This document shows positions 1-12,940 of a DNA stretch of 64,000 bases, piece by piece. Location: contig CAWIIP010000002.1 in the NCBI GenBank assembly GCA_963836235.1, forward strand, positions 192,001-256,000. Direction: 5' to 3'. A program made the position numbers and the translations under genes. This stretch comes from an uncultured Pseudomonadota bacterium. Its GTDB lineage: Bacteria; Oederibacteriota; Muellerivitia; Muellerivitales; Muellerivitaceae. The first letter of the stretch is position 1, and every line of letters begins with the position of its first letter. The notes under the pieces are model-generated. The model did no database searches. It saw nothing but the letters and a program-made list of their open reading frames with translations, and was not told the origin of the DNA.

Positions 1-160
1 CCGGCGATTTGTTTTGCGTCCACGTTGTCTTTCGCTTCCGGGGGTTCCGGGGGTCACTTCCCGCCGGGCTAGGGATGGGAATAGGGAAGGGGCTGTTCCC
101 TTCCCTTGGGGGGGTCCGGGGGAAACGCCGCCCGGACTACAGGTTTGGGAAACGGTTGAA

Positions 161-580
161 AAGGTTGGGGGATAAATCGGCGGGAACAAAACCTTTAAAA
201 AAAAGCCGAAAGGCTTTTCACCTTATGGGCCAAAAAAGCGACCGGCCTTGGGTCTCACGCCCCTTCCCTCGTCCCCAAATACCGTGGACGGTGAACCAGG
301 CCTCGAACGCTGCCGTTGCACTCTCGCGATTCGTCGCTTAAAGGATTGCCTGACCAGAGCTCCAGGTCATCCGCTCCGCTACTTCCCTTCCGCCAAAAGC
401 ACGCGGAAGTCCCTTAATCATCGTTGCCGGAAAAACCGGCAACCTCGACTTCCGCACCAGGCAGGCCTGCTTGAGGGCAGGCCGCCAAGAATCCTTTTTA
501 CCCGCGCCCCCCTACTCGTTCGTAGAGGGGGGCGCAGTAAAAAGGCGCGAAACCCTCAAATAAAAATGAGGAGGATTCGC
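161..580 (+). repeat. Structured leader element A, copy 1 (upstream of spoVG-like gene 1)
   Basis: Blocks shared with 2902-3316: aaggtt..aaatcRgcgg..aacctt; ggcctcgaacgctg; tcgcgattcgtcgcttaaag; caggtcatccgctccgctRcttcccttccgc; hairpin ctttttac-gcgcccccctac/gtagaggggggcgc-gtaaaaag (493-545); aaataaaaatgaggaggattcg RBS. Confidence 0.85.
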
Positions 581-1000
581 ATGAATCCAAAGATTGAAGT
601 AGAGAAGTTGAATATCGCCAAGAAAGGACAGCAGGTCGGGACGTTCTCCGCTCGGGTGGGCTTCGATGGCGGGTGTGAGGTTACTCTACCCGGTATGAGG
701 ATCGTCGAGGGGGCCAAAGGGACTTTCGTGGATGTTCCGTCAAGGCAGTTCAAGGACGTGGGCTTTGTTCCCTTTTACTACTTGAACAAGGCCTTAAGGG
801 ATTTAATCACGCATGAGGCGCTGGATGCCTACCGCAAAGCGGTGGCGGAAAAGGCGGGTGAGAAACCGACGAGTCCGGCGGTGCCGGCGGCCCCTGCAGG
901 GCCCGCAGTTGCGGCGGTAAAGCCGGAAAGTCCAGTGGTTCCCTCTCAAGCGAAAACGTGGCCACGGAAGGAATGGAAGCCAAACCCGGCAAGGAAATAG
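581..1000 (+). CDS. SpoVG-family nucleic-acid-binding protein with Ala/Pro-rich tail
   Basis: GAGGAG RBS before ATG 581. VTLPGMRIVEGAKGTFVDVPSR...FYYLNKALRDLITHEALDAY matches the SpoVG pattern (IRVIEGxxGLFVAMPS...L.AY). Confidence 0.75.
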   Translation: MNPKIEVEKLNIAKKGQQVGTFSARVGFDGGCEVTLPGMRIVEGAKGTFVDVPSRQFKDVGFVPFYYLNKALRDLITHEALDAYRKAVAEKAGEKPTSPAVPAAPAGPAVAAVKPESPVVPSQAKTWPRKEWKPNPARK

Positions 1001-1005
1001 AAGAT

Positions 1006-1090
1006 AAAAGAAGGGCCCGGGGCCGAGAGGCTCCGGGCTCTTTTTGTTGAAGGGGGAAGGTTTGGAGGGGCGTACTACCCCCTCCAACTT
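1006..1090. terminator. Intrinsic (likely bidirectional) terminator plus a second conserved hairpin
   Basis: A-tract, gggcccggggcc/ggctccgggctc stem, T-tract, then ttggagggg/cccctccaa; the same pair of hairpins recurs at 3742-3825. Confidence 0.75.
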
Positions 1091-1098
1091 TGTCAGTT

Positions 1099-1494
1099 CT
1101 AGGGTTTAGGCTGTTTAGCGAAGGTCTTGTCGAACGACCCTTTCCAGCGAATCCCCTTTACCCGACCTTCCATGATTGCGTCCGCCTTCTCGTCAATTTC
1201 TTTGGCGAGTTTGGGACCGGGTTTATAAAATTTCGTTCCATTGTATTCAAAAAGGAATTTGTTAGATTTACTTCTCAGGCGGGTCTTTTTCGGCAGGTTT
1301 GCCTTATTCGGTTTCTTAGGTTTTGATTTCACGATTTTCCCCCCAACCAAGGCATCCGCCACGTTTTTGAGGGAAGAAAGAATATGTTTCTTATCCCGCC
1401 TGTCGAGGGCGGCGTTTAGATAACCCTTCCTGATTTCAGGGTCTTTTAGTTCCTTCAAAAGAAATTCATGATGATCGACTGTTCGGCCTTTCAT
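1099..1494 (-). CDS. Antitoxin-like protein: HI1420-type antidote N-terminus fused to a short addiction-module-component-like C-terminus
   Basis: GGAGG RBS. DHHEFLLKELKDPEIRKGYLNAAL...LKNVADA resembles the addiction-module antidote N-terminus; C-terminus EIDEKADAIMEGRVKGIRW. Confidence 0.5.
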   Translation of the reverse strand: MKGRTVDHHEFLLKELKDPEIRKGYLNAALDRRDKKHILSSLKNVADALVGGKIVKSKPKKPNKANLPKKTRLRSKSNKFLFEYNGTKFYKPGPKLAKEIDEKADAIMEGRVKGIRWKGSFDKTFAKQPKP

Positions 1495-1533
1495 ATTATC
1501 CTCCGTTGGAAAGCTCCTAAGGCGCAAACACCT

Positions 1534-1872
1534 TTAAAAGTTTACGGTTAAGTCAACGTTCTTAACCAGATCGGAAGCCGTCACCCCCAAGGCCTTGGCA
1601 ATAAGGTCAATTATTCCTAAGGTCGGGCTATAGGTGCTGTTCTCGTTTTCAATATTCAAAACCGTCCGGCTGGAAACACCCGCCTTCTCGGCCAATTCAA
1701 CTTGGGTCAATTTCTTCTTGTTCCGCAACTTAATGAGGTTCCAACCAAGGGAAACCCTTGGGCTCGGATTCTTCAAAGAGGCGTAAAGGTCGGGCCGTCT
1801 TTTCTTAAGGTGTTTAATGTCTTCTTCAATGGAAACTCCCGGCAAAACAATTTTTTTAAAATGTGTTTTCAT
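1534..1872 (-). CDS. XRE/HTH_3 transcriptional regulator (HigA-like antitoxin)
   Basis: LIKLRNKKKLTQVELAEKAGVSSRTVLNIENE...PTLGIIDLIAKALGV is a canonical XRE HTH; lies downstream of a RelE-like gene. Confidence 0.85.
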   Translation of the reverse strand: MKTHFKKIVLPGVSIEEDIKHLKKRRPDLYASLKNPSPRVSLGWNLIKLRNKKKLTQVELAEKAGVSSRTVLNIENENSTYSPTLGIIDLIAKALGVTASDLVKNVDLTVNF

Positions 1873-2160
1873 TTATTCCCCCTCCAATGCTTTTATTTCA
1901 GCTAAGTATTTTTGAATCGCCTCTTTTTCTTTTTCGCGCGGCTCCCCCGCCCTGGTGATATGGGCGGTCAAAATGAAAAGGGCGTGCAACTTAAAAGACA
2001 AATAATAATTCACCACCAAAACCCTTTTTTCTCCCTTTAAAATTTTATCAAAAAAACCAGAACGGTCTTTAGCATAAGCAAGCCCCAAAACCTGGAACCT
2101 TAAAAGGTCAAGCTCTTCCCGGTCCATAATGTTGTCCCGGAAGTTCCGAAAATACGGCAT
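1873..2160 (-). CDS. Degenerate RelE/HigB-like toxin
   Basis: Size, position upstream of an XRE gene, and RVLVVNYYL...LFILTAH...EKEKEAIQK pattern; lacks the GTGGxRK motif. Confidence 0.4.
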   Translation of the reverse strand: MPYFRNFRDNIMDREELDLLRFQVLGLAYAKDRSGFFDKILKGEKRVLVVNYYLSFKLHALFILTAHITRAGEPREKEKEAIQKYLAEIKALEGE

Positions 2161-2184
2161 AAATCCATAAAAACCTCACTTCTT

Positions 2185-2213
2185 ATTATGTGTAGTATCC
2201 TTCATATAGTCAA
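2185..2213 (-). promoter_or_regulatory. sigma70-like promoter of TA cassette 1
   Basis: Minus strand TTGACT-17 bp-CATAAT upstream of a GAGG RBS. Confidence 0.55.
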
Positions 2214-2444
2214 GTACGACAAACTGCGCTCGATAAAATCCTCATAATCCGAATCAAAAACATCCTGGCACTTGAGGCAGTTTCCGGTTTCTTCGTCTAA
2301 CGGGAGGGCGTTGCTTCCGCACGAAAAACAAAACCCCTTGCAAGCGGGGCAGGGTGTCCCCTCTTTTTCGTCGTCCCATCCGTGGCCACATTTCCAAGCG
2401 GAAAAAGGAAAATGGAGTCCTGTTTTAGAAATTTCGTTTATCAA
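2202..2444 (-). CDS. Small acidic Cys-rich (putative Zn-binding) protein
   Basis: AAGGAG RBS before TTG; CGH, CPAC, CFSC, CLKC motifs; acidic tail. Confidence 0.6.
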   Translation of the reverse strand: MINEISKTGLHFPFSAWKCGHGWDDEKEGTPCPACKGFCFSCGSNALPLDEETGNCLKCQDVFDSDYEDFIERSLSYLTI

Positions 2445-2455
2445 ATTTTTTCTCC

Positions 2456-2551
2456 TTAAATCCTTTCTTCTTTGATTAGTTCCAAAAACCTATCGATTTC
2501 CTGGTCGGGAACCCTGAAAAGTTCCTCTATGTTTTTGATCTCTTCGTTCAT
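2456..2551 (-). CDS. 31-aa acidic peptide (absent from the ORF track)
   Basis: AAGGAG RBS, ATG at 2551, MNEEIKNIEELFRVPDQEIDRFLELIKEERI*; its stop overlaps the RBS of the next gene; same position relative to element B as spoVG-like gene 3. Confidence 0.55.
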   Translation of the reverse strand: MNEEIKNIEELFRVPDQEIDRFLELIKEERI

Positions 2552-2557
2552 TTCCCC

Positions 2558-2775
2558 TGCTCCTTCGCTTTTTTTTCGGGGCTTTTAAGTTCCTGCCCCC
2601 ACCGGCACAAGCCGGCGGTGGGGGCAGGAACTTGAAGGGGATTCCGCAGGAAAAATTTGGTTTCAATGCGACAGCAGCGCCGACCTTGCCGACCATGACA
2701 ATTGCGATCTTCAATTGGCGTGGGCGGTGCTTTGCAGTCGGCGCATTTGAAAGGAATTAAATTTTCTTAGGAATA
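2558..2775 (-). repeat. Structured leader element B, copy 1
   Basis: Hairpin aagttcctgcccccacc/ggtgggggcaggaactt; long-range pairs attcc/ggaat, gaaaaattt/aaattttct, gcgccgac/gtcggcgc; homologous to 6961-7245. Confidence 0.85.
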
Positions 2776-2901
2776 GACCATTGGCAAAGCGGGGGCACCT
2801 CGCCCTTTGCCCACAAGGCAAAGGGCGGCGTCTTGGTTGTGCAAACAGCAATAAGCTGTTTGCACATAGGGGCGGGTTGGCCCCGGATGGTTAAATGGAT
2901 G

Positions 2902-3316
2902 AAGGTTACACGCCCGCGAAATCAGCGGTCGGCGAACCTTCTTAGGTATTTTTCGAAGGGACTTAGGCTTTCAACAAGGCCTTAAAACCAAAACCGCGAA
3001 CGGCGATCCGAAACCTCAAGTCAAAGATAAAGAATGCCAACACAGATTCATAAGGAATCAGCAACCGGCCTGGCCCTCCGGGACCCCGGGCAAAATCAGC
3101 CCGGCGGCCTCGAACGCTGTCGGCCTCCTCCTCCGTCGTCGCCTTTCGCGATTCGTCGCTTAAAGCAATTTTCTAACAGGGCTACAGGTCATCCGCTCCG
3201 CTGCTTCCCTTCCGCAAAGGAACATACAAACTTTTTACCGCGCCCCCCTACTCGTTCGTAGAGGGGGGCGCAGTAAAAAGGCGCGAAACCCCAAAATAAA
3301 AATGAGGAGGATTCGA
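2902..3316 (+). repeat. Structured leader element A, copy 2
   Basis: Same blocks as 161-580; hairpin at 3231-3280 nearly identical to 493-545. Confidence 0.85.
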
Positions 3317-3733
3317 ATGAATCCAAAGATTGAAGTTGTGAAGTTGAATATCGCCAGGAAGGGACACCAGGTCGGGACGTTCTCCGTCAAGGTTGGGTTC
3401 GATGGCGGGTGTGAAGTGACGCTACCGGGGATGAGGATCGTCGAGGGTTCCAAAGGAACCTTCGTGGATCTGCCGGCGAGAAAGTTCAAGGAAGGGGGCT
3501 TTGTTCCCTTCTACTACTTGAACAAGTCTTTGAAGGATTTGATCACCAAGGAAGGGCTGGAGAATTACCGAAAGGCCGGGACGGGGAAGCAACCGGAGAA
3601 GGCGGCATTCGCGGTCCCTGCGGCCGCAAGGCCAGCGGCGGCCAGCGCGACCATGGTTTCAAAACCAACGGTTCCTGCTCCGGCGAAAACGTGGCCACGG
3701 AAGGAGTGGAAACCGAATTCATTTAAAAAATAA
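3317..3733 (+). CDS. SpoVG-family protein, close paralogue of 581-1000
   Basis: Near-identical N-terminal ~85 aa and the same AKTWPRKEWKPN tip; GAGGAG RBS. Confidence 0.75.
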   Translation: MNPKIEVVKLNIARKGHQVGTFSVKVGFDGGCEVTLPGMRIVEGSKGTFVDLPARKFKEGGFVPFYYLNKSLKDLITKEGLENYRKAGTGKQPEKAAFAVPAAARPAAASATMVSKPTVPAPAKTWPRKEWKPNSFKK

Positions 3734-3741
3734 AAGAAGGA

Positions 3742-3825
3742 AAATGGCCCGGCTCCTAGAGGAGTCGGGCTTTTTTTGTTTCGCGGGGGGAGGTTTGGAG
3801 GGGCGTCCTACCCTCTTCTAGCCTT
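3742..3825. terminator. Intrinsic terminator plus a second conserved hairpin
   Basis: gcccggctcct/aggagtcgggc followed by T7, then ggtttggaggggcgt, as at 1006-1090. Confidence 0.75.
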
Positions 3826-3833
3826 TTTGGGAT

Positions 3834-4034
3834 TTATTCGGGGTGAACTTCAATTCCCTTCACGGCCCCGCTTTTCATTTCCTTATAACGAACTATGATT
3901 TCTTTATGCTCTTTGGCGGTTGGTTTCCTGAACTTTAAAGGGGCGTTTTTGTAAACAGCCTCAACCAATTCAGCCACCAGCCTCCCAACCTTGGGGACTC
4001 TTGGCCCGTGGGCCGTCTTTTTCATCAGATTCAA
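3834..4034 (-). CDS. Small antitoxin-like (addiction-module-component-like) protein
   Basis: LKFRKPTAKEHKEIIVRYKEMKSGAVKGI, homologous to the 5178 and 1099 C-termini; overlaps the upstream stop. Confidence 0.5.
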   Translation of the reverse strand: MNLMKKTAHGPRVPKVGRLVAELVEAVYKNAPLKFRKPTAKEHKEIIVRYKEMKSGAVKGIEVHPE

Positions 4035-4225
4035 ACTTTAGACAATCGGCGTTCAACTGAGCGCGAGGGCGGCATAAGTTCCTTTTTGCAAACACTTTTT
4101 ATGAACTCATCCGTCTCTTTTCGATGCTTTTGATTAAACTTTACAATTCCCAGACGGTTCATCTCGTTGGAAACTCTCTGTTTCCATTTTCTGACTTCCG
4201 TCAAACTCTTAGGTTCCTTCATCAC
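4031..4225 (-). CDS. Small basic hypothetical protein, possibly an orphan antitoxin
   Basis: GGAGG RBS; MKEPKSLTEVRKWK resembles small partners encoded after PIN toxins. Confidence 0.45.
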   Translation of the reverse strand: MMKEPKSLTEVRKWKQRVSNEMNRLGIVKFNQKHRKETDEFIKSVCKKELMPPSRSVERRLSKV

Positions 4226-4255
4226 CTAACACCTCCAAAGGGGATGGCAATTTAA

Positions 4256-4609
4256 TTAATGTCCTGCCGCTGGAACCAATCCCGTCAATTTACCCGCCAT
4301 TTCGAAAAGAAGCTTTTTTGTTTGGGAGGGGTGAGTTTTTATGCCTTCTGCCCAATAGCCAACCGCCGCCGGAATCGGGTTCTTACCTTGCTCCCATTTC
4401 TTTACCGTTTCCGAACTAACAGCCATGATTCGGGCGAATTGGGGTTGGGAAACCTTCAGAATATTTCTCGCGTCCTTTATATCCTGGCCTGTAGTGCGGA
4501 TGAAAAGGTTTTCGACCTTAACTTTGGCGGGTTTCCCTTGGGCAAATTTGAGACCTTCCCTAAGGCTTTCCCTGAACAATTTCTTTTCTTCCTTTGTTTT
4601 TTTCATCAT
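4256..4609 (-). CDS. higA: HigA2/YiaG-like HTH antitoxin
   Basis: LFRESLREGLKFAQGK...IKDARNILKVSQPQFARIMAVSSETVKKWEQG; 4-bp overlap with the upstream toxin. Confidence 0.8.
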   Translation of the reverse strand: MMKKTKEEKKLFRESLREGLKFAQGKPAKVKVENLFIRTTGQDIKDARNILKVSQPQFARIMAVSSETVKKWEQGKNPIPAAVGYWAEGIKTHPSQTKKLLFEMAGKLTGLVPAAGH

Positions 4610-4998
4610 CGATCCCCTCCCTCTTTCTGGTAGGCTTTTTTTATGCCTTCCGCGGTTTTTTTTAGTTCCTTTAAATCATTGGCGTCTAAATTTAATTTAT
4701 TCCTGTGGTCGTAAATTGAGAACAGGTAAATATCATGTTGAACACGAAAAAGAAGGTAAGTGAATCTAAAGCCTCCGCTTTTCCCGATGTTCCGGCTGGG
4801 TGATTTTGCCCGGCCTTTTATCCATCCTCCCGTACCTTTGATTTCGTCAAGCTTTCCGGATTCAACTTCCAACCTGATACTGTCACGTATTTCCTCGTGT
4901 AATTTGGGCTCCAACCTCACCAATTTTTTAAGGTCGCTCTCATATTGAAGGAGCTTAATGAGGCGGTATTTGATTTTCGAAACGTCAATTTCTTCCAC
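4606..4998 (-). CDS. higB: HigB2/RelE-family toxin
   Basis: IKGTGGWIKGR...GKSGGFRFTY...IYLFSIY motif; GTG start at 4998 inferred from promoter position. Confidence 0.85.
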   Translation of the reverse strand: MEEIDVSKIKYRLIKLLQYESDLKKLVRLEPKLHEEIRDSIRLEVESGKLDEIKGTGGWIKGRAKSPSRNIGKSGGFRFTYLLFRVQHDIYLFSIYDHRNKLNLDANDLKELKKTAEGIKKAYQKEGGDR

Positions 4999-5017
4999 GA
5001 GTACCCTAATCTTTATG

Positions 5018-5055
5018 ATATGGTATCTTATACCATATGTCATATAACAGGTCAA
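5018..5055 (-). promoter_or_regulatory. higBA promoter with overlapping palindromic operator
   Basis: Minus strand TTGACC-17 bp-TATAAG; palindrome atatggtat-ctt-ataccatat at 5018-5038. Confidence 0.7.
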
Positions 5056-5073
5056 CCAATATATTATGAAAAC

Positions 5074-5141
5074 CCGGATACAAAGCCTCCGGCGGGGCCA
5101 TTCCTTTACTTGCCCTTTTCATCGGGAGAGCCTTGTAGACC
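5074..5141 (-). repeat. ~70-bp direct repeat of the 3' end and downstream flank of spoVG-like gene 3 (other copy 6615-6684)
   Basis: Manual alignment gives 5 substitutions and 2 single-base gaps over 70 positions. Confidence 0.9.
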
Positions 5142-5177
5142 CTAGGGCCGCTGTTCTCCTTCGAGGACCATTAGCTC

Positions 5178-5342
5178 TTAAAGTTTCTCCAAGTGTTTGA
5201 TGAGGTCTTGAGAAGAAATCGTCTTGACCTTGCCGCTTTTCATTTCGGCCACCCCACGGCGAATCTCTGCCGCTTCCTTGGGTGAAGGCTTGCTAAACTT
5301 CCAGCCCTTGTGTTCAACGATATCATTTGATTTGTTACCCAC
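5178..5342 (-). CDS. Small antitoxin-like (addiction-module-component-like) protein
   Basis: IVEHKGWKFSKPSPKEAAEIRRGVAEMKSGKVKTISSQDL; GTG start overlapping the upstream stop is inferred. Confidence 0.55.
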   Translation of the reverse strand: MGNKSNDIVEHKGWKFSKPSPKEAAEIRRGVAEMKSGKVKTISSQDLIKHLEKL

Positions 5343-5493
5343 GGCGGTATCTTTCAGGCCGGACTTTTTCATCGGGAATCCAAGTCCCTTCCCGGTCGGC
5401 TTTTGCGGCGGCTTTAACAATCTTCGCATGGGTTTTAGCGTCGGGCTTGGTGAGTTTAAGCCCCATGTGTTCCACCACTACCTTTTTAATCAA
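5335..5493 (-). CDS. 52-aa protein of the same micro-family (absent from the ORF track)
   Basis: GGAGG RBS, TTG start, MIKKVVVEHMGLKLTKPDAKTHAKIVKAAAKADREGTWIPDEKVRPERYRRG*. Confidence 0.55.
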   Translation of the reverse strand: MIKKVVVEHMGLKLTKPDAKTHAKIVKAAAKADREGTWIPDEKVRPERYRRG

Positions 5494-5510
5494 AATCCCC
5501 TCCAACATTT

Positions 5511-5828
5511 TTACTTCTTCTTTCCAAATAGGCGCCGGTACTCCTCGGCGGAAATTCCCTTGCGTTTCTTTCCGTAGCCTTCCGTAACCCTGGCCCCTCC
5601 GTGGAAGATTCCGTAACCAAGTTTCTTTTTCGCCATGGGTTGAATGGCCTCAAGGAAATCCTGCCACTTTGGATCGTGGGCCTTCTGGCCCATTTCGATG
5701 GCGGCCTGAACGGCCCCACGGGCGAAGGATGAGAAGTCCTTCACGCCCAAAGCCTTAAGGGACTCTTCCCAATACTTCGCCTGGGAAGATTTAGCTTTGA
5801 AACGGATCATCACGAATTTTCTTTTCAT
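5511..5828 (-). CDS. Hypothetical protein, possible RHH-type antitoxin
   Basis: N-terminal strand KFVMIRF followed by two helices (FSSFARGAV); C-terminal KGISAEEYRRLFG. Confidence 0.45.
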   Translation of the reverse strand: MKRKFVMIRFKAKSSQAKYWEESLKALGVKDFSSFARGAVQAAIEMGQKAHDPKWQDFLEAIQPMAKKKLGYGIFHGGARVTEGYGKKRKGISAEEYRRLFGKKK

Positions 5829-5894
5829 CCAAAGCCTTTCCTAATAAGAACCTGGCGAATAACTCCAGCCTACCCGCGACTAAAATATTTAAAC

Positions 5895-6296
5895 TTATCG
5901 AATCCACTTCACCTTAATGTCTTTTTCAACGGATTTGAATTCTTTGTCCCCGGTCACGAGGTGGGCGTTTCTCAATTTTGCCGTCGCGGCGGCGTATGCG
6001 TCGGCGTAAGACATCTTATGAGTCCCTTTGAATCGCGCCGCAACAAGGGTCAATTCCCTACCCACGTCCAAAACCTGGATATCCATTTCCGCAAGCGTTT
6101 TTTCATACAGCATCGCTCTTTCTTCCCCGCCCTCCCTAAAAGCCGTGTACCAAACCTCTCCCCAATTCACGATACAAAGGAAAGCCTCGGCGTGGCCGTC
6201 CGCGATTTCATTTAAAACGGAAACAACGACTTCCTTGCCCTCTTCCCCTTCCAAATAGGCCAAAAGGGCGTGGGCGTCCAAAACGTAATGTTTCAA
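5895..6296 (-). CDS. vapC: VapC PIN-domain toxin
   Basis: YVLDAHALLAYL..E, NWGEV, MSYADAYAAATA, LVTGDKEF. Confidence 0.92.
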   Translation of the reverse strand: MKHYVLDAHALLAYLEGEEGKEVVVSVLNEIADGHAEAFLCIVNWGEVWYTAFREGGEERAMLYEKTLAEMDIQVLDVGRELTLVAARFKGTHKMSYADAYAAATAKLRNAHLVTGDKEFKSVEKDIKVKWIR

Positions 6297-6523
6297 AGCT
6301 CGCGCTCAGCTTTCTTTTCTTCCGCCAAAAGCTTTAAAAGCTTGCCCTTGGTCCCGAGAATCCCGCAGTTCTTCCTTATCAAATCCTTGGTCATGGGAAC
6401 CATGCGGATCTCCCCGTCTTTCTCAAAAAATTTGACGGAAGTCCCCTTCTTGATTCCGAATTTTTCCCTGAATTCAGCCGGAATGACTACTTGGCCTTTT
6501 TCGGAAACGTGTGTAATCAGCAT
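6293..6523 (-). CDS. vapB: AbrB/MazE/SpoVT-family antitoxin
   Basis: VSEKGQVVIPAEFREKFGIKKG; GGAGG RBS; ATGA overlap with vapC. Confidence 0.9.
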   Translation of the reverse strand: MLITHVSEKGQVVIPAEFREKFGIKKGTSVKFFEKDGEIRMVPMTKDLIRKNCGILGTKGKLLKLLAEEKKAEREL

Positions 6524-6647
6524 AAAAACCTCCCAAAAGTAAAACATATTTACTATGTAAAACTTATTTATAAGGTACAACTTTATTGAACCGTAGTCAA
6601 ATAAAGACTAATTGCCGGGTACAAAGCCCCCGGCGGGGCCGTTCCTC

Positions 6648-6956
6648 TTACTTGCCCTTTTTCACCGGGAGGGCCTTGTAGACCTTCTCGGCTTCGGGCA
6701 GAACCTCGTCGTTGAGGTTGTTGAAGGGGTAGTAGCACTTGATGAATTCAGGCTTGCCACCTTGCTCCTTCGCTTGCTTGACCTCGTGGATTGCGGAGTC
6801 CACTTTCAACCCCTTATCCGTCTGGACTAGCCGGTAGTTCGGTAGGGTGATAAGCGGCTCACCGTCCACCGACACCGTGACCTTGAAAAATGCCAGGGTC
6901 TTGGTGTCCTCCTTCTTGGTTTTTTTCATGTCCTTCACTTCGATTTGCAGTCCCAT
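6648..6956 (-). CDS. Divergent SpoVG-like protein (third copy)
   Basis: AAGGAG RBS; KTLAFFKVTV...ITLPNYRLVQTDKGLKV...CYYP...EAEKVY fits the SpoVG layout. Confidence 0.6.
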   Translation of the reverse strand: MGLQIEVKDMKKTKKEDTKTLAFFKVTVSVDGEPLITLPNYRLVQTDKGLKVDSAIHEVKQAKEQGGKPEFIKCYYPFNNLNDEVLPEAEKVYKALPVKKGK

Positions 6957-6960
6957 GACT

Positions 6961-7245
6961 TGCTCCTTATTTTTATTATTGCCTGGGGCCTTCGGCCTCT
7001 TTTTTGCGGGACTTTTAAATTTCCGGCCCCGCCGGCACAAGGCCGGCGGCGGGGCTGGAAATTAAGAAGGGGATTCCATCTTGGGAATTTATTCACCAAG
7101 CGATAGCGGCGCCGACCCGATGTTTTTTATCGCCCTTGGCCGAAGGCCAACGGGTAGGCCTCACATGACAATCGCGGGTTTCGATTGGCGTGGGAGGTGC
7201 CTCGCAGTCGGCGCATCTTTAAAAAATAAATTTTCAAAGGAATCT
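6961..7245 (-). repeat. Structured leader element B, copy 2
   Basis: Hairpin aatttccggccccgcc/ggcggggctggaaatt with the same ggcacaag loop; gattcc/ggaatc, gcgccgac/gtcggcgc; catgacaat..attggcgtggg.ggtgc shared with copy 1. Confidence 0.85.
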
Positions 7246-7440
7246 TCACGTATTATTGCCCGACTGGACAATACCAGTGACCGAAGTGAAATAGTAATCA
7301 GTGAGAGGATTAGGTAAAGGGCAAAAGTTTTGGGCCTTAGCAACATTCACCAACATTAGACAGATAAAAAATATATTCAGTTTTTGAAAAATAATTTTCA
7401 ATTTCAACAACCTTAGATAGAACTTTTTCTTGAACCCGAT

Positions 7441-8178
7441 TTAATTAGAATGATATTTTCCAACCGGTTCTGCGTACTTGACCGATGGGTCAGTTTTCAT
7501 TTCTTCAATTGCGTCTTTCACGGACATTCCATTTGTAATTTGAATAAGGTAATATTCCATTTTAAGAGCTTGTAAAACTTCATGCTTTACGTCACCTATC
7601 GACCCCATTAGTTTGAGGACTCTTTCATTATCAGTTGCGGGAATATCTGATTTTAATCCGACCATAATTTGATTCGCATCGTAATCTTTACCTGGCACAA
7701 GCCGATCCCAATTGGGGGTCGGGTAAGGTTTGTGCGTTGGGGTTGGTGTTGGAGAAGCGAAAAAAGTTTCCAAGTTAGTAATGATAACGGGTTCAGCAAA
7801 TGAAACAGCTGGATCAGCTTTCAGCTTTTCGTAAGCGCCTTTCGACGACATACCATTTGTAACCTTGATATTCCAACCTTCCGCCCCATTGGTATTTTTT
7901 GTAACACCCATCGACATCATTATTCCAATAATTCTATTTTTTTCAGAAAGAGGGAGGTGTGGTTTTAACCCGACCAAAATCACCTTGTCTTTTTCAAGAA
8001 CCGGCCAATTAAAATGACGTGTCGGAACGGGAGAAGAAGAAGTAAGGTTTGCCCCATTGACACTTCCATTTGATTGAAGTGAAGTGGGACCTGCCGAGGC
8101 CGAAGAAAAAATAAAATATTGTATTATCAACAAAAATGATAAAAATAAATTTCTATGCTTGCGAAAGTCCATTGTCAA
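7441..8178 (-). CDS. Secreted protein with two subtilase (S8/fervidolysin-type) propeptide-like domains and no protease domain
   Basis: Signal peptide; two repeats of (I/M)xVGLK...(L/M)KxDPxVx(F/Y)AEP. Confidence 0.6.
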   Translation of the reverse strand: MTMDFRKHRNLFLSFLLIIQYFIFSSASAGPTSLQSNGSVNGANLTSSSPVPTRHFNWPVLEKDKVILVGLKPHLPLSEKNRIIGIMMSMGVTKNTNGAEGWNIKVTNGMSSKGAYEKLKADPAVSFAEPVIITNLETFFASPTPTPTHKPYPTPNWDRLVPGKDYDANQIMVGLKSDIPATDNERVLKLMGSIGDVKHEVLQALKMEYYLIQITNGMSVKDAIEEMKTDPSVKYAEPVGKYHSN

Positions 8179-8207
8179 TATTGCTTCCTTAGTTCAAGCA
8201 GAATTAA

Positions 8208-8369
8208 TTAATCCAGATTCACCCCGGTCAGGCGCACGGTGCAGCCGCCGCTGGCGGTGACGATTTCGTTTCCGGAAACCTTAAGCAGGGGAGGAGCGGC
8301 TTGCGCGGGAGTTGGACCGAAAAAAGTGGAACCCAAAAGCACAAAAAGCGAAAGAAAGAAAAAGTTCAT
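8208..8369 (-). pseudogene. Truncated 5' end of a secreted GH5-like glycoside hydrolase
   Basis: Signal peptide, then LKVSGNEIV...G.TVRLTGVN (typical GH5 start), then an abrupt stop. Confidence 0.65.
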
Positions 8370-8525
8370 TTCGCCCCGGGACGTTTTAAGCCGGGAACCA
8401 AAGAACGTTTTCGTTTTGAAAAATAAGTTTTGTGGAGACCTGTTCAAAGTGTCACCCGATACACTGGTTAAAGGTTGCGGAACAATTGGCAACAAAACTC
8501 GAAATGTTTCATCGCTTCTCATGAA

Positions 8526-10232
8526 CCGGAATTTCCCAGATGACCTTCTCTGAAAACATTGCCGGGTAATTTGTTTCTCATTATATCGCCCCCCCCCCCC
8601 CGCTTCTTCCATCCGAATCCGGAATTTTCCGTCCTGGGCCACTGAAATAAGCCCCAGGAAAAGGTTTCTGTGCCCAAAAAAGCTGAAATTGACCTTCTGG
8701 AAAGCCAATTCTCGTTGTGAGCGCACACCTATCCTGCGGTAGTCGCTCGGGTTGAAGCCTTGATGCCTTCCTGCGGTTATCGCAGTACTGGCGCTCGCGG
8801 CCTTACCATTGCCAGTAGCCGTATCCGATTGAGGATTTCAGCAAACAGGCGTCGGGAAACCATCACCTCCGCCATCTGGAAAATAACGTACCGCGAATGA
8901 CGGATGACATTAGCCCCGATCTTGATGAGTTTTTCCCTCAAGGTCGTTAGCGACCAATGTTTCACCAGTTCTGGCAGTGCCAGTCGGCGCAGGAAGTTGC
9001 CCAGATTGTAGGCCAGGGCGAATAGTTGTAAGCGCACTTGGTTGTCCGCGAAGTCGTGGCAGCTTAGTCTTGTCCACTTCATCGCATACTTTCCCTCTTT
9101 GATCCACTGCTCAGCCGTGCCTCTTCCGTTGTAGAATTTCACCACCTGGGGTGCCGGTCGTCGCATGTTCGTTACGATGAAACCCACCTTTGGGAACAAT
9201 TCCCCGTTGTGATGTTCGATCTTCGCCACCACGCGGCGGGGTTTGTCCCAGCTGACGGCTTGGTATTGGAAGCTGTGAAACCGGACAACCGGCTTGTGGG
9301 AGGGGCGGCCCACGGGACGGGTTAAAAATGGCTCGATTTCCCGTTGGAGTATGGCATTGGCAGGTTGGCGGATCGCGTAAAGATATCCTTCGTCTTCTAG
9401 GTATTCGTATAGTTCCTGACGGGCGAAAGCCGCGTCACCCCGGAAAAACCGGCTGATGGAAAGACCCCGGTAGCGGGCAACTACCGGTTCAAGAACCGAA
9501 CGCCATTCGTGGGCACTGGCCACATTGCCGTTGCGCAACATAGCCCGTTCCAAATCGCCGAACTGGTTGAAGCAAAACAGGGGATGGTAACAGGTACAGC
9601 CAAAGTAACCGTTGTACAAGGAACCTTCCTGATCCCCGTAGGTCTCGCTCACTGAGCTATCCATGTCGAGGATGATCTGTTGTATGGGCTTTTTCTCATG
9701 GACTCCATCGATCCATTGGCCCGATAAGTCAATTAAGCCGGTCAAATTCTTCGACTGGGTGAGGACCTCCGTCTCGAAACGACCCATCTGGCTGGTGGAG
9801 GCGGCCTGTTTTTCCCTGGCCCGTCCTCCGATCACATGCCGCATCGCAGGATCGACACTCAGGCGTTCTGCGTCGTTGGTATCCTCATAACCGGCCAAGC
9901 GGCTGAATACCGACTGGCGAAGAAGCGCCGTCATCGTGTGTTGCGTATTCTTACCGGTCCGCCGATCCCAAAGGATGTTTTCTGTTCTGTCAGTCAAACC
10001 AAAAGCTTCGTCGAGTTCGCGATAGGGAATCAACCCGCCATCGGAAGTGACCTTCGCACCATGGAACTCCAACTTGAGGCCAGGATCAAAAACCACCCGA
10101 AGAGCGTCTTTTCCGCCTTCACCCATTGCATTTCCCCCTCTCATGTTCCCCAACACGAAGAAAAACCTTTGTTTATATGGCCAAACGTTGTCTTATTATA
10201 CTCGAAAGGAAATTCCATCTGGGAAATCCGGG
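8526..10232 (-). mobile_element. IS1380-family insertion sequence
   Basis: 17-bp terminal IRs ccggaatttcccagatg (8526-8542) and catctgggaaatccggg (10216-10232), 15/17 match. Confidence 0.88.
8777..10156 (-). CDS. IS1380-family DDE transposase
   Basis: TSDGGL, GYEDTND, LDMDSS, YHPLF, RGDAAF, FYNGRGTAEQWIKEGK, LREKLIKIGA motifs. Confidence 0.95.
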   Translation of the reverse strand: MLGNMRGGNAMGEGGKDALRVVFDPGLKLEFHGAKVTSDGGLIPYRELDEAFGLTDRTENILWDRRTGKNTQHTMTALLRQSVFSRLAGYEDTNDAERLSVDPAMRHVIGGRAREKQAASTSQMGRFETEVLTQSKNLTGLIDLSGQWIDGVHEKKPIQQIILDMDSSVSETYGDQEGSLYNGYFGCTCYHPLFCFNQFGDLERAMLRNGNVASAHEWRSVLEPVVARYRGLSISRFFRGDAAFARQELYEYLEDEGYLYAIRQPANAILQREIEPFLTRPVGRPSHKPVVRFHSFQYQAVSWDKPRRVVAKIEHHNGELFPKVGFIVTNMRRPAPQVVKFYNGRGTAEQWIKEGKYAMKWTRLSCHDFADNQVRLQLFALAYNLGNFLRRLALPELVKHWSLTTLREKLIKIGANVIRHSRYVIFQMAEVMVSRRLFAEILNRIRLLAMVRPRAPVLR

Positions 10233-10244
10233 TTAAGGGTTACA

Positions 10245-10880
10245 TTGCCAAATCCCAATACATCCAAGATCATCCGCGAACTTCAACGCCTTTATCCCGA
10301 CACCCGATGCTTCCTGCACTATAAAACTCCCTTTCAACTACTTTGCGCCGTCATCCTTTCCGCCCAATGCACGGACGAAAGGGTGAACATCGTGGCCCCG
10401 GAATTATTCAAAGTTTTTCCAACCCCGGAAAAGCTGGCGAAAGCCAAAATGAAAGACGTGGAAAAGCTCATCAAATCCACCGGGTTTTACCATAACAAAG
10501 CCAAGAACTTGGTTGGAGCCGCCCAAGCCTTATTGGGTTTATATAAAGGAAAGATGCCCAAAACCATTGAAGAAATGGTGGAGATTCCCGGCGTGGGCCG
10601 AAAAACCGCAAACGTGGTTCTTGGGGAGGTTTACGGCATCTCAGAAGGCATTACAGTGGATACCCACGTCACTCGCCTCAGCAATCGCCTAGGTTGGACC
10701 AAACACCAGGATGCCGTAAAAATCGAACAGGATTTAATGAAGATTGTTCACAGGGAAGAGTGGCTTCACTTCTCTCATCGCCTGATCCAGCACGGCCGTA
10801 AAGTTTGCGACGCCCGTAAACCCCTTTGTAACATTTGTGCTCTGGCGAAGTGGTGTCCATCCGCTAAATCTTTAAAATGA
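10245..10880 (+). CDS. nth: Endonuclease III
   Basis: ILSAQCTD, HhH motif IPGVGRKTANVV, VDTHV, FeS motif CDARKPLCNIC..C; TTG start inferred because the upstream part of the ORF lies in the IS. Confidence 0.95.
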   Translation: MPNPNTSKIIRELQRLYPDTRCFLHYKTPFQLLCAVILSAQCTDERVNIVAPELFKVFPTPEKLAKAKMKDVEKLIKSTGFYHNKAKNLVGAAQALLGLYKGKMPKTIEEMVEIPGVGRKTANVVLGEVYGISEGITVDTHVTRLSNRLGWTKHQDAVKIEQDLMKIVHREEWLHFSHRLIQHGRKVCDARKPLCNICALAKWCPSAKSLK

Positions 10881-11017
10881 GACTTGAAAAGATATCGTCC
10901 AGAACAACCGGAAAGACAATTCATGATATTATTTAGGGAACCTGGGAGTTTCGTTATAAGCCGACAACCCCGTTTATTGATTGTATCGAACCAGTAATAT
11001 ACCGACAGGAAAACCCT

Positions 11018-12940
11018 ATGACGGAAAACCTTCCAATCTTTCATGTTTTAAAATCCATATCTAATAAGCCTTTCAATCAAAAAAGACTGCGCCAGATATT
11101 GTCTTCCTTTATTTATTTTCCAATCCTGATCGGTGGACTGGGTCTTATTCACCCGGATATAAGTTTCCCCTGCACTTTAAGCAGCGCTACCCTGAGTTGG
11201 GCATCGGATGACGGTGGGGAAATCTTCATCAACGGCAACCTGGCCAATCAATGTCCCGACGGTTGTTGGGTGGGTGTGAATAATATCAATATTCCCCTCG
11301 CTTGGTTAAATACCACCGGGGACAATGTTCTGGCGGCATACACCTATTCGTCGGACACGGTTTATAGCGGCACCACTTGGCTGCTCACCCTGGCTTATTC
11401 CGATTGTGGGAATACTTACATTCAATCGGGCGATCCCTGCGTTGTCGACCAGTATTTGAACGATCCGAGCGCGGCCACTTCGGGCCTTCCCACCTTTCCA
11501 ACAGGCTGGAACAATACGGGTTTTGTTGACTCAAGCTGGTCAGCCCCCGGCACAGTAGATTCCGTTCTCCCGGCGATTGCTTCCGCCGATGAATTGATCC
11601 CTAACCCATCCGGAGGGACGATAGCCTGGATTTGGGGAGCCCCGAATTGGCTGACGGTAACCGTCGGGGATGCTTATATGTACCGTGAAAACTTTCAGGT
11701 GGGGGTTACGGCCTGCTCAGCTTTGGCCCCGACGCCTACCCCCGTGTCTTCTTTCGGGTGTTTTGCACTGAGTGGAGACGGAGGAGATACCATCATTTCG
11801 GATGTCGGCGGCTATGTCGGCACCGCTCCAGCACCAGCGGTTGTCGTAACCGACGTCACTTTGGCCGCGCCCATGGTTTGGCCGAGCGCCTGCGGCGGCC
11901 AATGGATATCGGACAACGCCAATGCCTATGCCCTCCAATCCACTCCCGCGACCATGGTATTTCAACGAACCTTTTCCATCAGTTCCGCCATCATCAGTAG
12001 CGGTTCTTTCGGGATTTCCTTTGGCGCCGACGATTCGGCTTACTATGTCTTATCCAATAGTCTCTACCCCTCGGGAGTAACCATTGCGTCTACACTTTTT
12101 AAAAATTGCCAAGGGCAAGCTTTTAGCGGAAGTCTTTTGAGCAGCTCCGGTCCCAACACTTTGACGAGTTATTTGATCAATTCCACCAGCATTCCAACTG
12201 GTGTCGGTACTACTTACGGCTACACCGGTCTTTACTATGCGCTTTGCGTCACGGGAAATACCCCGACCCCCACTTCGACTCCGACGGTAACGGCCACCTT
12301 TTCCCCAACCCTCTCGCCCACCAATACCCTCACCGCGACTTCTACCTTTACGTCTACCAATAGTTCGACCAACACCACCACTTCAACCGCGTCTCTCACC
12401 CCCACGATCACGGCCACCTATACCCCCACCTACACCCAGACCAACAGCCCCACCCCATCTCCCACATTTACCGTCACCAACACCCCGACGATAACCCCTA
12501 CTTCAACCCCTTCCTTGACCCCAACGATAACCGATAGCTTTACCCCCAGTTCCACATCCACCAATAGCGCCACACCCACCGCCACCTTAACTCCCTGTGG
12601 CTATCCGGGAAATACCTGTACCGCTACAAACACGCCCACGGCAACGCCTCTACCGGAAGATACCTTTTACGTCTCGGAAAATATCTTTACGCCCGCCAAT
12701 CCGGTTTCCATTATGGTGGCCTACACCCAATATTCCGGGCCCTATGACCTTTGTATCTACAACACGGCGGGTGAACATATCCGCACCCTGGCTTCCCAAC
12801 AATTATCCGCCCCGATCAGCCAGTCCTATAGCTGGAACGGGACCAATAAGTATGGGGATAAATGCGCCAGCGGAGTTTACATTATTTATTTGACAGAACC
12901 CTTCAGTGTCAAAGTCAAAAGAATCATTCTCATCAAATAG
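11018..12940 (+). CDS. Secreted protein: jelly-roll/lectin-like domains, Thr-rich linker, FlgD-Ig/T9SS-CTD-like C-terminus
   Basis: SDDGGEIFING and GADDSAY motifs; TPT repeats; IYNTAGE...WNGTN..G...ASGVYI...KRIILIK. Confidence 0.7.
   Translation: MTENLPIFHVLKSISNKPFNQKRLRQILSSFIYFPILIGGLGLIHPDISFPCTLSSATLSWASDDGGEIFINGNLANQCPDGCWVGVNNINIPLAWLNTTGDNVLAAYTYSSDTVYSGTTWLLTLAYSDCGNTYIQSGDPCVVDQYLNDPSAATSGLPTFPTGWNNTGFVDSSWSAPGTVDSVLPAIASADELIPNPSGGTIAWIWGAPNWLTVTVGDAYMYRENFQVGVTACSALAPTPTPVSSFGCFALSGDGGDTIISDVGGYVGTAPAPAVVVTDVTLAAPMVWPSACGGQWISDNANAYALQSTPATMVFQRTFSISSAIISSGSFGISFGADDSAYYVLSNSLYPSGVTIASTLFKNCQGQAFSGSLLSSSGPNTLTSYLINSTSIPTGVGTTYGYTGLYYALCVTGNTPTPTSTPTVTATFSPTLSPTNTLTATSTFTSTNSSTNTTTSTASLTPTITATYTPTYTQTNSPTPSPTFTVTNTPTITPTSTPSLTPTITDSFTPSSTSTNSATPTATLTPCGYPGNTCTATNTPTATPLPEDTFYVSENIFTPANPVSIMVAYTQYSGPYDLCIYNTAGEHIRTLASQQLSAPISQSYSWNGTNKYGDKCASGVYIIYLTEPFSVKVKRIILIK

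Follow-up and report, generated by a model that had tools for sequence, protein, structure and literature searches.

The DNA analysed here is a 64,000-nucleotide (nt) window from the genome of an uncultured bacterium (C2:192001-256000 of genome G000), and we focus on its left end, positions 161-7245, where conserved non-coding leaders precede genes with a predicted SpoVG fold and operons of toxin-antitoxin (TA) and other small genes. The best explanation for this island is that it forms the right part (161-7245) of a ~24-kb remnant, bounded by insertion sequence (IS) DNA, of a conjugation-linked integrative element. Its leaders may be mRNA leaders of the type of EGeRS1 from the Bacillus plasmid pLS20, as lineage-specific counterparts, an analogy for which we regard the arguments as evenly balanced. 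The argument starts from repeats, structure with covariation, gene content, linkage to a coupling protein and recent transfer, all of which were observed.

Repeat finding and alignment agreed with the original prediction that two tandem units occupy this place, and the pattern reached beyond the interval which that prediction had covered. In each unit, a leader (A) precedes a SpoVG-fold gene directed rightward, and an operon under a second leader (B) runs leftward towards that gene. The two A copies were 83% identical between 321-396 (A1) and 3143-3218 (A2) and 88% identical between 496-795 and 3232-3531, a block that reaches into the SpoVG gene, and B1 and B2 shared two blocks at 77-79% identity. 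Both plus-strand open reading frames (ORFs) after A (581-1000 and 3317-3733) begin MNPK, while B, on the minus strand, runs into a 31-amino-acid (aa) ORF and a Zn-ribbon ORF in unit 1 and into ORF 6648-6956 in unit 2; the predicted order of A before SpoVG-like genes and B before small genes, including a third SpoVG-like one, thus held by ORFs and by the profile and model matches given below. The hairpins after the SpoVG genes (1032-1083 and 3765-3816) were 77% identical. Both hairpins of the proposed double terminator are conserved, but only the first (1015-1038 followed by a T run; 3746-3771) is a canonical terminator, as the second lacks a T run on either strand. A third leader class (C, about 450 nt) lies upstream of ardC, radC and DUF6876 within the 20-kb left flank of window base 1 (L009), and its ardC copy enters the window at 1-140.

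Leaders A, B and C are non-coding, 250-450 nt long and end at a Shine-Dalgarno (SD) sequence or ribosome-binding site (RBS), and RNAalifold predicted multi-helix consensus structures for all three from alignments of 19 (C), 10 (B) and 10 (A) rows. Relative to 500 shuffles and to slid controls, cells were paired at 93.9% in C (80.3% shuffled), 90.5% in B (80.7%) and 90.3% in A (83.4%), and covariation reached 0.369 in C (0.140 shuffled, slid ≤ 0.185), 0.305 in B (0.146, slid ≤ 0.114) and 0.187 in A (0.073, slid ≤ 0.073). For each leader, 0 of 500 shuffles matched the observed pairing and covariation, figures that are supportive and short of formal proof, since the structures were derived from the tested alignments themselves and the rows are related; a measure of further pair types was unexceptional for B (288/500 shuffles). 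Pairs changed on both sides made up 16 of 37 in C, 16 of 39 in B and 12 of 38 in A, and in one 12-pair helix of C 11 pairs covaried. A metagenome copy of A (L159) had four pairs of one helix altered on both sides and kept its start-codon hairpin despite both-side changes. The A leaders were 57-78% identical compared to 62-81% for the adjacent coding sequences, with the leader equal or higher in 4 of 7 comparisons, and this conservation held even where the encoded proteins were at 31-51% identity. The alignments retained the A copy of G053, where an internal stop interrupts the downstream SpoVG gene and a 130-nt gap is present. In all, 32 C, about 10 A and about 8 B diverged copies were available for comparison.

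The three leaders share a design in which a hairpin with a C run on its 5' arm and a G run on its 3' arm lies ~40 nt before the RBS, inside an outer helix. In 10 C copies, a pyrimidine tract further upstream was the predicted pairing partner of the SD, with a mean P(unpaired) of 0.15 compared to 0.41 after shuffling the upstream sequence (8 copies at ≤ 0.11, one at 0.31 and one at 0.98), and in 8 A copies the mean was 0.34 compared to 0.65. In leader A, a small predicted hairpin that covers the start codon is also conserved. A search with Rfam cmscan (E up to 1; window 1-12000 and L009 10000-20000) gave chance-level matches, none at gathering score and no family on A, B or C; these included miRNA models on a B1 hairpin and sX6 at 29 bits (cut-off 40) in coding DNA. 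Taken together, we consider it likely that the leaders are real, selected, structured cis-elements.

The distribution of these elements was examined by DNA searches of 31 genomes of one family. In G000, A and B occurred nowhere but at this locus. Whole A was found in G000, G067, G051, G052 and G053 (two more matches, at E ~0.004-0.005, were short), and whole B in G000, G067 and G070, while B-search matches in 14 other genomes consisted of the 38-nt palindrome of B2 alone. Leader C was found by DNA search in 11 genomes; a covariance model built on its proximal 224 positions (R1; strong copies at E ≤ 3e-16) returned 32 strong copies, clustered and numbering as many as 7 in one genome, in 10 of the 31 genomes, plus 3 weak ones, while the 68 genomes from the phylum's 22 other families gave no match. 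Within the candidate phylum, elements of this kind are restricted to a single family. SpoVG1-type genes (those led by A) occurred in A's five genomes, with one weak match in G048, and SpoVG3-type genes (that of 6648-6956) in B's three genomes. On this co-occurrence, A therefore appears in essence to lead SpoVG paralogue 1, and B for the most part paralogue 3; other genes stand under B at B1 here and in one G070 copy. The first genes led by C encoded ArdC in G000, G051, G053 and G048 and RadC in G000 (twice), G068, G047, G052 and G051, the remainder being DUF6876 and small ORFs.

In G051, the cluster lies downstream of genes for M78/XRE, ParA, ParB and a TraG/VirD4-type coupling protein. For six of eight orthologues of this coupling protein (≥ 44% identity), leaders were found on the same contig at a distance of 3-10 kb downstream; for the other two, the contigs were short or left out of examination. 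Operons led by B or C were co-directional with the coupling-protein gene in 6/6 elements, and A-led genes were opposite. No relaxase or oriT was identified, and the 383-aa and 278-aa ORFs that flank ParAB and the coupling protein in G051 had no Pfam or NCBIfam match. These results make it very likely that the island is what remains of a mobile element linked to a coupling protein, and the mobile, conjugation-linked nature proposed for it earlier is upheld by ArdC, RadC and DUF6876 left of base 1, by coupling-protein, ParA and ParB genes near related units and by a 99.5%-identical copy elsewhere. In another region of G000 (C2:1173226-1183924), a further C-led radC lies ~9 kb from a distantly related coupling-protein gene (31% identity), and C-type leaders are therefore not restricted to one element type. 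In G051, three adjacent tyrosine-recombinase genes (L075 13589-16715, on G051:C14; Pfam) are inserted in a C-led radC, and the interrupted RadC ORF has lost its N-terminus.

The near-identical copy spans window positions 490-6812, which matched contig C3 of G067, a genome of another genus, at 99.54% identity over 6,323 nt; ardC and radC of the two genomes were 97-98% identical. Compared to this, core DNA of that 420-kb G067 contig was 67-81% identical to the window, and the same-genus genome G054 was 80% identical, which argues for a recent transfer rather than a binning error. Caution is warranted, as a cellulase gene at 99% identity and an IS without differences are likewise common to G067 and G000, and contamination of G067 was rated at 4%. 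The shared cellulase region (L009 1-3700 and G067:C4:382268-385746, 99%, in genera whose core DNA is about 70% identical) would represent either a second recently shared segment or bin contamination.

Cargo differed between otherwise related units. In metagenome contigs L155 and L158, window position 1085/1081 was joined directly to 5871 at ≥ 97.6% identity, and the 4.8 kb holding cargo 1, B1, A2, SpoVG1b and cargo 2 were missing. Contigs C16 and C12 of G067 each carried two tandem units, whose cargo differed from that of the window and comprised an HI1420-type antidote with a 113-aa partner and unassigned ORFs, and the units of G067 and G052 contained TA genes other than those of the window. 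In G051 and G052, the operon converging on A-SpoVG1 (PIN, XRE, VapBC) stood under a C-type leader and not under B; a frame of A on the left and B on the right, which had been taken as fixed, is thus common and not obligatory. The window itself bears rearrangement scars, namely the remnant at 5074-5145 and the chimeric ORF 1099-1527. A scaffold that collects cargo, as had been proposed, would be a deduction from this mosaicism alone.

The SpoVG-fold genes were examined by profile and by model. Genes 1a and 1b scored 22.6 bits against Pfam SpoVG (PF04026; cut-off 29.6), and the similarity of SpoVG1 to SpoVG in Pfam and NCBIfam was weak and below curated cut-offs, while gene 6648-6956 had no Pfam match. 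For AlphaFold models of both SpoVG1 (16 sequences, pLDDT 63.5) and SpoVG3 (pLDDT 74.2), the ten best PDB matches in Foldseek were all SpoVG (best E 8.8e-3 and 1.6e-3, respectively), and the profile of the 6648-6956 family matched that of SpoVG1 (hhalign 97.6%, E 3.7e-12). Because of this profile match and the SpoVG-like model, the third gene is, as judged by similarity, a true SpoVG1 paralogue, and the island has two SpoVG-fold types, 1 and 3; the predicted SpoVG identity thus failed the Pfam cut-off and was recovered at the level of modelled structure. A search of a 5.8-billion-protein collection returned 18 SpoVG1 proteins at E ≤ 1e-3 among 79 candidates, and 9 representatives (clusters) at E ≤ 1e-10 were found among 1.84 billion, which indicates a tiny clade, apparently confined to these elements. 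In SpoVG1 proteins, a low-complexity Ala/Pro linker leads to a tail that is conserved, has two invariant-like tryptophans and was modelled with low confidence. Among the papers listed by a literature search on SpoVG and conjugation, none placed SpoVG in a leading region.

The TA assignments of the original prediction fared unevenly. VapBC is solid (PIN 73.5 bits, MazE/AbrB 46 bits), and VapC (5895-6296) and VapB (6293-6580) overlap by 4 nt. The toxin of the pair that had been called HigBA (4606-5055) fell below the RelE cut-off (22.9 bits; cut-off 27), matched phrog_5869 at 8.4e-14 and has an MqsA/XRE-like partner antitoxin; the 95-aa ORF of unit 1, called RelE-like, had no family match in Pfam, PHROGs or NCBIfam.

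The closest described system, and the best parallel found for the EGeRS analogy raised by the original prediction, is EGeRS1 of pLS20, which is present in five conserved, inverted-repeat-rich copies of 420-750 bp, each directly before an operon RBS (PMC8708921). The operons it heads include ardC; it lacks a sigma-A promoter and stops read-through in one orientation (PMC8708921). In the archetypal unit on our island, an A-led SpoVG1 gene faces a B-led operon with SpoVG3 first, followed by varying type II TA and small ORFs. By analogy with EGeRS1, the cis-acting leaders would set the timing of each establishment or maintenance operon. They would most probably act as mRNA leaders that shield the operon from read-through and keep the RBS in a hairpin until a trigger arrives, and their repetition would supply patches of homology for the swapping of cargo. 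Transcription as a leader, the gating of translation and the role in timing are inferred.

Several results weigh against the leaders being EGeRS1-type mRNA leaders of a functioning element. A 'distant' blastn search of PLSDB with C and A DNA gave no match (whether PLSDB includes pLS20 was unchecked), as did tblastn with the SpoVG1 protein, and any kinship with EGeRS1 or Frpo would therefore be analogy and not homology. EGeRS1 itself has no established mechanism (PMC8708921). Two of the ten C copies and three of the eight A copies lacked SD pairing, and related alignment rows inflate the shuffle tests. Relative to dinucleotide shuffles (subsets of 7/14 C, 8/10 B and 8/9 A copies), folding z-scores were -4.3 on both strands for C and nearly equal for A (-3.9 sense, -4.1 template), whereas B scored -2.7 on the sense and -5.1 on the template strand, which suits a single-stranded DNA (ssDNA) or antisense structure more than an mRNA leader. 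On the template strand, moreover, a covarying helix of B contains two G:U pairs that are invariant. Wobble cells on pairs common to the predictions for both strands (sense versus antisense) numbered 4 vs 6 in C and 7 vs 10 in B, and by columns 7 vs 9 in A and 9 vs 10 in C, counts that favour neither strand. Two earlier indications of strand were discarded: a sense preference in a first wobble count (16 GU vs 8 AC in C; 23 vs 12 in B) was an artefact of sense-strand prediction, and an antisense advantage in raw minimum free energy (33/33 copies) was gone for A and C under z-scores. A sigma-70 scan, whose consensus may not be that of the host, gave 12 sites compared to 7.5 expected and none in A, B or C. 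Lastly, the coupling-protein paralogues of G000 are distant and lie elsewhere in the genome (≤ 35% identity; best-scoring match 34%); as it lacks a cognate coupling protein, the island in the window may be a decaying remnant without transfer genes.

The best-surviving alternative, although we consider it unlikely, is that the leaders are ssDNA promoters of the Frpo/ssi kind, which would fold on the incoming strand, mimic duplex promoters and drive early expression of ardC, radC, the B operon and TA genes. IncF and IncI leading regions carry such promoters and are enriched in TA and anti-defence genes in one orientation (PMC11541004), and the gene set and uniform orientation here match that picture, with B- and C-led operons co-directional with the coupling-protein gene in all six elements, the template-strand z-score and invariant G:U pairs of B, and a length within the Frpo range. 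However, no -35/-10 pair was found in the helices under the sigma-70 consensus scan (which may not be the host's), C and A had no strand preference, and A heads oppositely directed SpoVG genes yet is of the same design. The anti-SD/SD pairing and start-codon hairpins suggest a role at the RNA level, PLSDB plasmids offered no similarity, and oriT, relaxase and transferred strand were not identified. For EGeRS1, an ssDNA promoter was judged unlikely by its authors, because transfer there involves the non-template strand (PMC8708921, section 4.1). As to the response to ssDNA that had been predicted for this island, the strand test gave no preference for A and C and a lean to the template strand for B.

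SpoVG is a known binder of DNA and RNA. The paralogues on the island could, rather speculatively, be trans partners that bind the C-run/G-run hairpins as RNA or ssDNA and time anti-restriction and TA expression, with the convergent frame as a self-regulating, recombination-prone scaffold that captures TA genes. A related and comparably doubtful alternative to EGeRS1-type leaders is that A, B and C are RNA or DNA operators for an element-encoded protein, with the SpoVG paralogues as candidates, and that the repressor accumulates later to leave a transient burst of expression, as for EGeRS2/Reg of p576. Besides the nucleic-acid binding of SpoVG, this would fit the finding that A and SpoVG1 share one set of 5 genomes and B and SpoVG3 one set of 3, the hairpin common to all three leaders and the restriction of the tiny SpoVG1 clade to these elements. 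Nevertheless, C was present in 5 genomes in which SpoVG1 and SpoVG3 were not both found (neither in G047, G049 and G068; a weak match in G048; type 3 alone in G070), the co-occurrence of A and SpoVG1 is trivial, A being SpoVG1's own leader, and protein binding to the leaders is wholly putative.

It is improbable that the repeats are selfish or neutral, i.e., palindromes resembling miniature inverted-repeat transposable elements (MITEs) or repetitive extragenic palindromes (REPs), together with homogenised promoter regions, that persist by recombination and gene conversion with cargo shuffling as a by-product. Such behaviour is suggested by the 72-nt double hairpin of C that occurs alone at ≥ 15 places, the scattering of the 38-nt insert of B2 through many genomes, the short direct repeats at the ends of the 88-nt insertion of A1 and the frequency of mosaic junctions. 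Whole leaders, however, always face and abut an RBS, are confined to coupling-protein-linked islands and keep their helices by compensatory changes across lineages with proteins at 31-51% identity. One recent event of segmental duplication that merely copied an ordinary promoter or 5' untranslated region, the outcome that the original prediction had named as fatal to its own proposal, is hardly credible: A and B do occur in G000 at these two places only, but homologues with other cargo exist in G067, G051, G052, G053, G070 and metagenome contigs, and the copies in the window have already diverged to 77-88% identity.

Features of the island are listed in Table 1. The hairpin between leaders C and A1 is terminator-like in both directions and may act as such, and the remnant at 5074-5145 is, by its sequence, a recombination scar.

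Table 1. Features of the island at the left end of the window (positions from window base 1; C2 coordinates refer to genome G000).
Feature	Position	Strand	Basis or remark
Leader C (ardC operon), distal 5' end	1-140	-	Full span G000:C2:191685-192140; R1 match C2:191710-191929; ardC left of window
Small A/T-flanked hairpin between divergent leaders C and A1	198-222		Sequence inspection; in 4/7 aligned A copies
Leader A1, with 88-nt insertion at 402-489	about 237-580	+	Repeat search, alignment, covariation controls
SpoVG-fold gene 1a, 139 aa; C-terminal low-complexity linker, conserved W-rich tail	581-1000	+	
Intrinsic terminator (1015-1048) and second conserved hairpin without T run (1062-1089)	1015-1089	+	
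Unit-1 cargo operon	1099-2551	-	ORFs and family searches
31-aa ORF, unit 1	2456-2551	-	
Zn-ribbon ORF, unit 1	2202-2444	-	
95-aa ORF, unit 1	1873-2160	-	No known family
XRE helix-turn-helix (HTH) gene, unit 1	1534-1872	-	
Chimeric 142-aa ORF, unit 1	1099-1527	-	
Leader B1 (2562-2795) and distal block common to C-type leaders (2793-2872)	2562-2872	-	
Conserved spacer hairpin between B1 and A2	2895-2973		85% identity to G067 L011 7644-7722, also between B and A
Leader A2	3061-3316	+	Repeat search, alignment, covariation controls
SpoVG-fold gene 1b, 138 aa	3317-3733	+	
Unit-2 terminator (3746-3771) and second hairpin	3746-3818	+	
Unit-2 distal cargo: 66-aa and 64-aa ORFs, HTH antitoxin, RelE-family-like toxin	3834-5055	-	
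HTH antitoxin, MqsA/XRE-like	4256-4609	-	
RelE-family-like toxin	4606-5055	-	
3' end and terminator remnant of SpoVG3-type gene	5074-5145	-	90-91% identical to 6615-6684
Unit-2 proximal cargo: 83-aa and 105-aa ORFs, VapC, VapB	5178-6580	-	
VapC, PIN	5895-6296	-	
VapB	6293-6580	-	
SpoVG-fold paralogue 3, 102 aa, first gene under B2	6648-6956	-	
Leader B2, with 38-nt palindromic insertion at 7118-7155	7000-7248	-	

Two of the leaders carry insertions of their own. The 88-nt insertion of A1 consists of nested hairpins with a short imperfect direct repeat at its ends; it was missing from the 99.5%-identical G067 copy, from L155 and L158 and from every other A copy, and is present once in G000 (blastn-short found itself alone). 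The 38-nt palindrome of B2 was also found in one G067 copy, but not in B1, and has near-identical copies across many family genomes, in the manner of a REP or miniature repeat. The family-wide search gave one further weak match in G000 (C2:2046944-2046989, 80%), and blastn-short with a 7-nt word gave its own copy alone. Within the cargo, the N-terminal half of the chimeric ORF 1099-1527 resembled the HI1420-type antidote of a neighbouring HigBA-like pair, without the HTH, and its C-terminal half matched a 75-aa ORF in G067 (L011 5041-5268) at 84% nucleotide identity.

Inspection of the DNA left of base 1, which had been suggested as a place to look for transfer genes, revealed leader C and a set of minus-strand genes encoding ArdC (ArdcN and zincin peptidase), a Gp49/HI1420 TA pair, a PEGA lipoprotein, RadC, DUF6876, a DnaJ-type Zn-finger ORF, an S1/P1 nuclease and a type III restriction-modification pair (N6_N4 methylase, ResIII). 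It did not yield a relaxase or integrase in the 20 kb left of the window, and no integrase was found among the scanned ORFs of the window or left flank. An integron cassette array was rejected, as these scans turned up no integrase and the repeats, which include the RBS, are placed 5' of the genes; attC motifs were assessed by eye only. The ~24-kb island is bracketed by a duplicate (C2:175438-176361 and 200210-201185, 94%; L009 3438-4361 and window 8210-9185) made up of a GH5 cellulase gene's 5' end together with the DNA upstream of that gene and a portion of a DDE_Tnp_1_4 IS. Copies of this IS at 99.6-99.8% identity were found on C1, C2 and C5, and one at 87.8% on C4.

Two smaller repeats accompany the island. 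A 72-nt double-hairpin module (L015:1430-1500, G000:C2:191930-192000) is present in some C leaders only (the ardC copies of G000 and G052) and alone at ≥ 15 other places in relatives, with a tandem pair in G052:C3, which gives it the look of a mobile insertion. A 37-nt repeat has 10 copies in G000, one of them at L009:17969-18005 (G000:C2:189969-190005), and also lies at L010 14231-14413 and 15299-15341 and at L011 2221-2257 and 10549-10585; it abuts the truncated end of the island in G067, forms an inverted pair 110 nt apart (MITE-like) and is found beside cas1 (Pfam Cas1).

How protective genes are switched on at the entry of conjugative elements is understood for few model plasmids only, and leaders of the EGeRS1 type have been described once, in Bacillus plasmids, without a known mechanism; a full-text literature search on EGeRS found nothing relevant beyond PMC8708921. 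The leaders described here would be an independent counterpart, unrelated in sequence, in an uncultured phylum, and their diverged copies allow structures backed by covariation, so that the helices offer concrete targets for mutation and a comparative handle on the mechanism. They tie a small, mobile-element-specific clade with a predicted SpoVG fold and exchangeable TA cargo to such leaders, in a module that appears to have passed very recently between genera. If the SpoVG paralogues do act on the leaders, the island would hold an establishment regulon based on SpoVG, a type undescribed for any mobile element.

With EGeRS1, the leaders share multiple copies per element, non-coding sequence rich in inverted repeats that ends at the RBS, the heading of ardC, the lack of a recognisable housekeeping promoter (here as far as the sigma-70 scan could tell) and a variable gene content behind the leaders of related elements. 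They differ in being chromosomal, in a Gram-negative-type candidate phylum known from uncultured members, in falling into three classes, one of which (A) heads oppositely oriented genes, and in having structures backed by covariation. With Frpo/ssi, they share repeated structured elements of similar length before anti-defence and TA genes, which are co-oriented under B and C, and the folding of B leans to the template strand; unlike Frpo/ssi, their stems contain no -35, -10 or UP element (in a sigma-70 scan from which the host consensus may differ), A and C have no strand preference, A-led genes are antiparallel and sequence similarity is absent. The CUP repeats of the IncN plasmid pKM101 leading region are conserved upstream repeats before ard and other genes, which may promote recombination and carry promoter and repressor sites in duplex DNA, whereas no promoter or repressor sites of that kind were identified in these leaders. 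With SpoVG itself (PF04026; PDB 2ia9, 2i9x, 2i9z), both paralogues share the predicted fold, but those of the island are borne on a mobile element in convergent pairs and form, in the case of SpoVG1, a tiny clade with an extra linker and W-rich tail.

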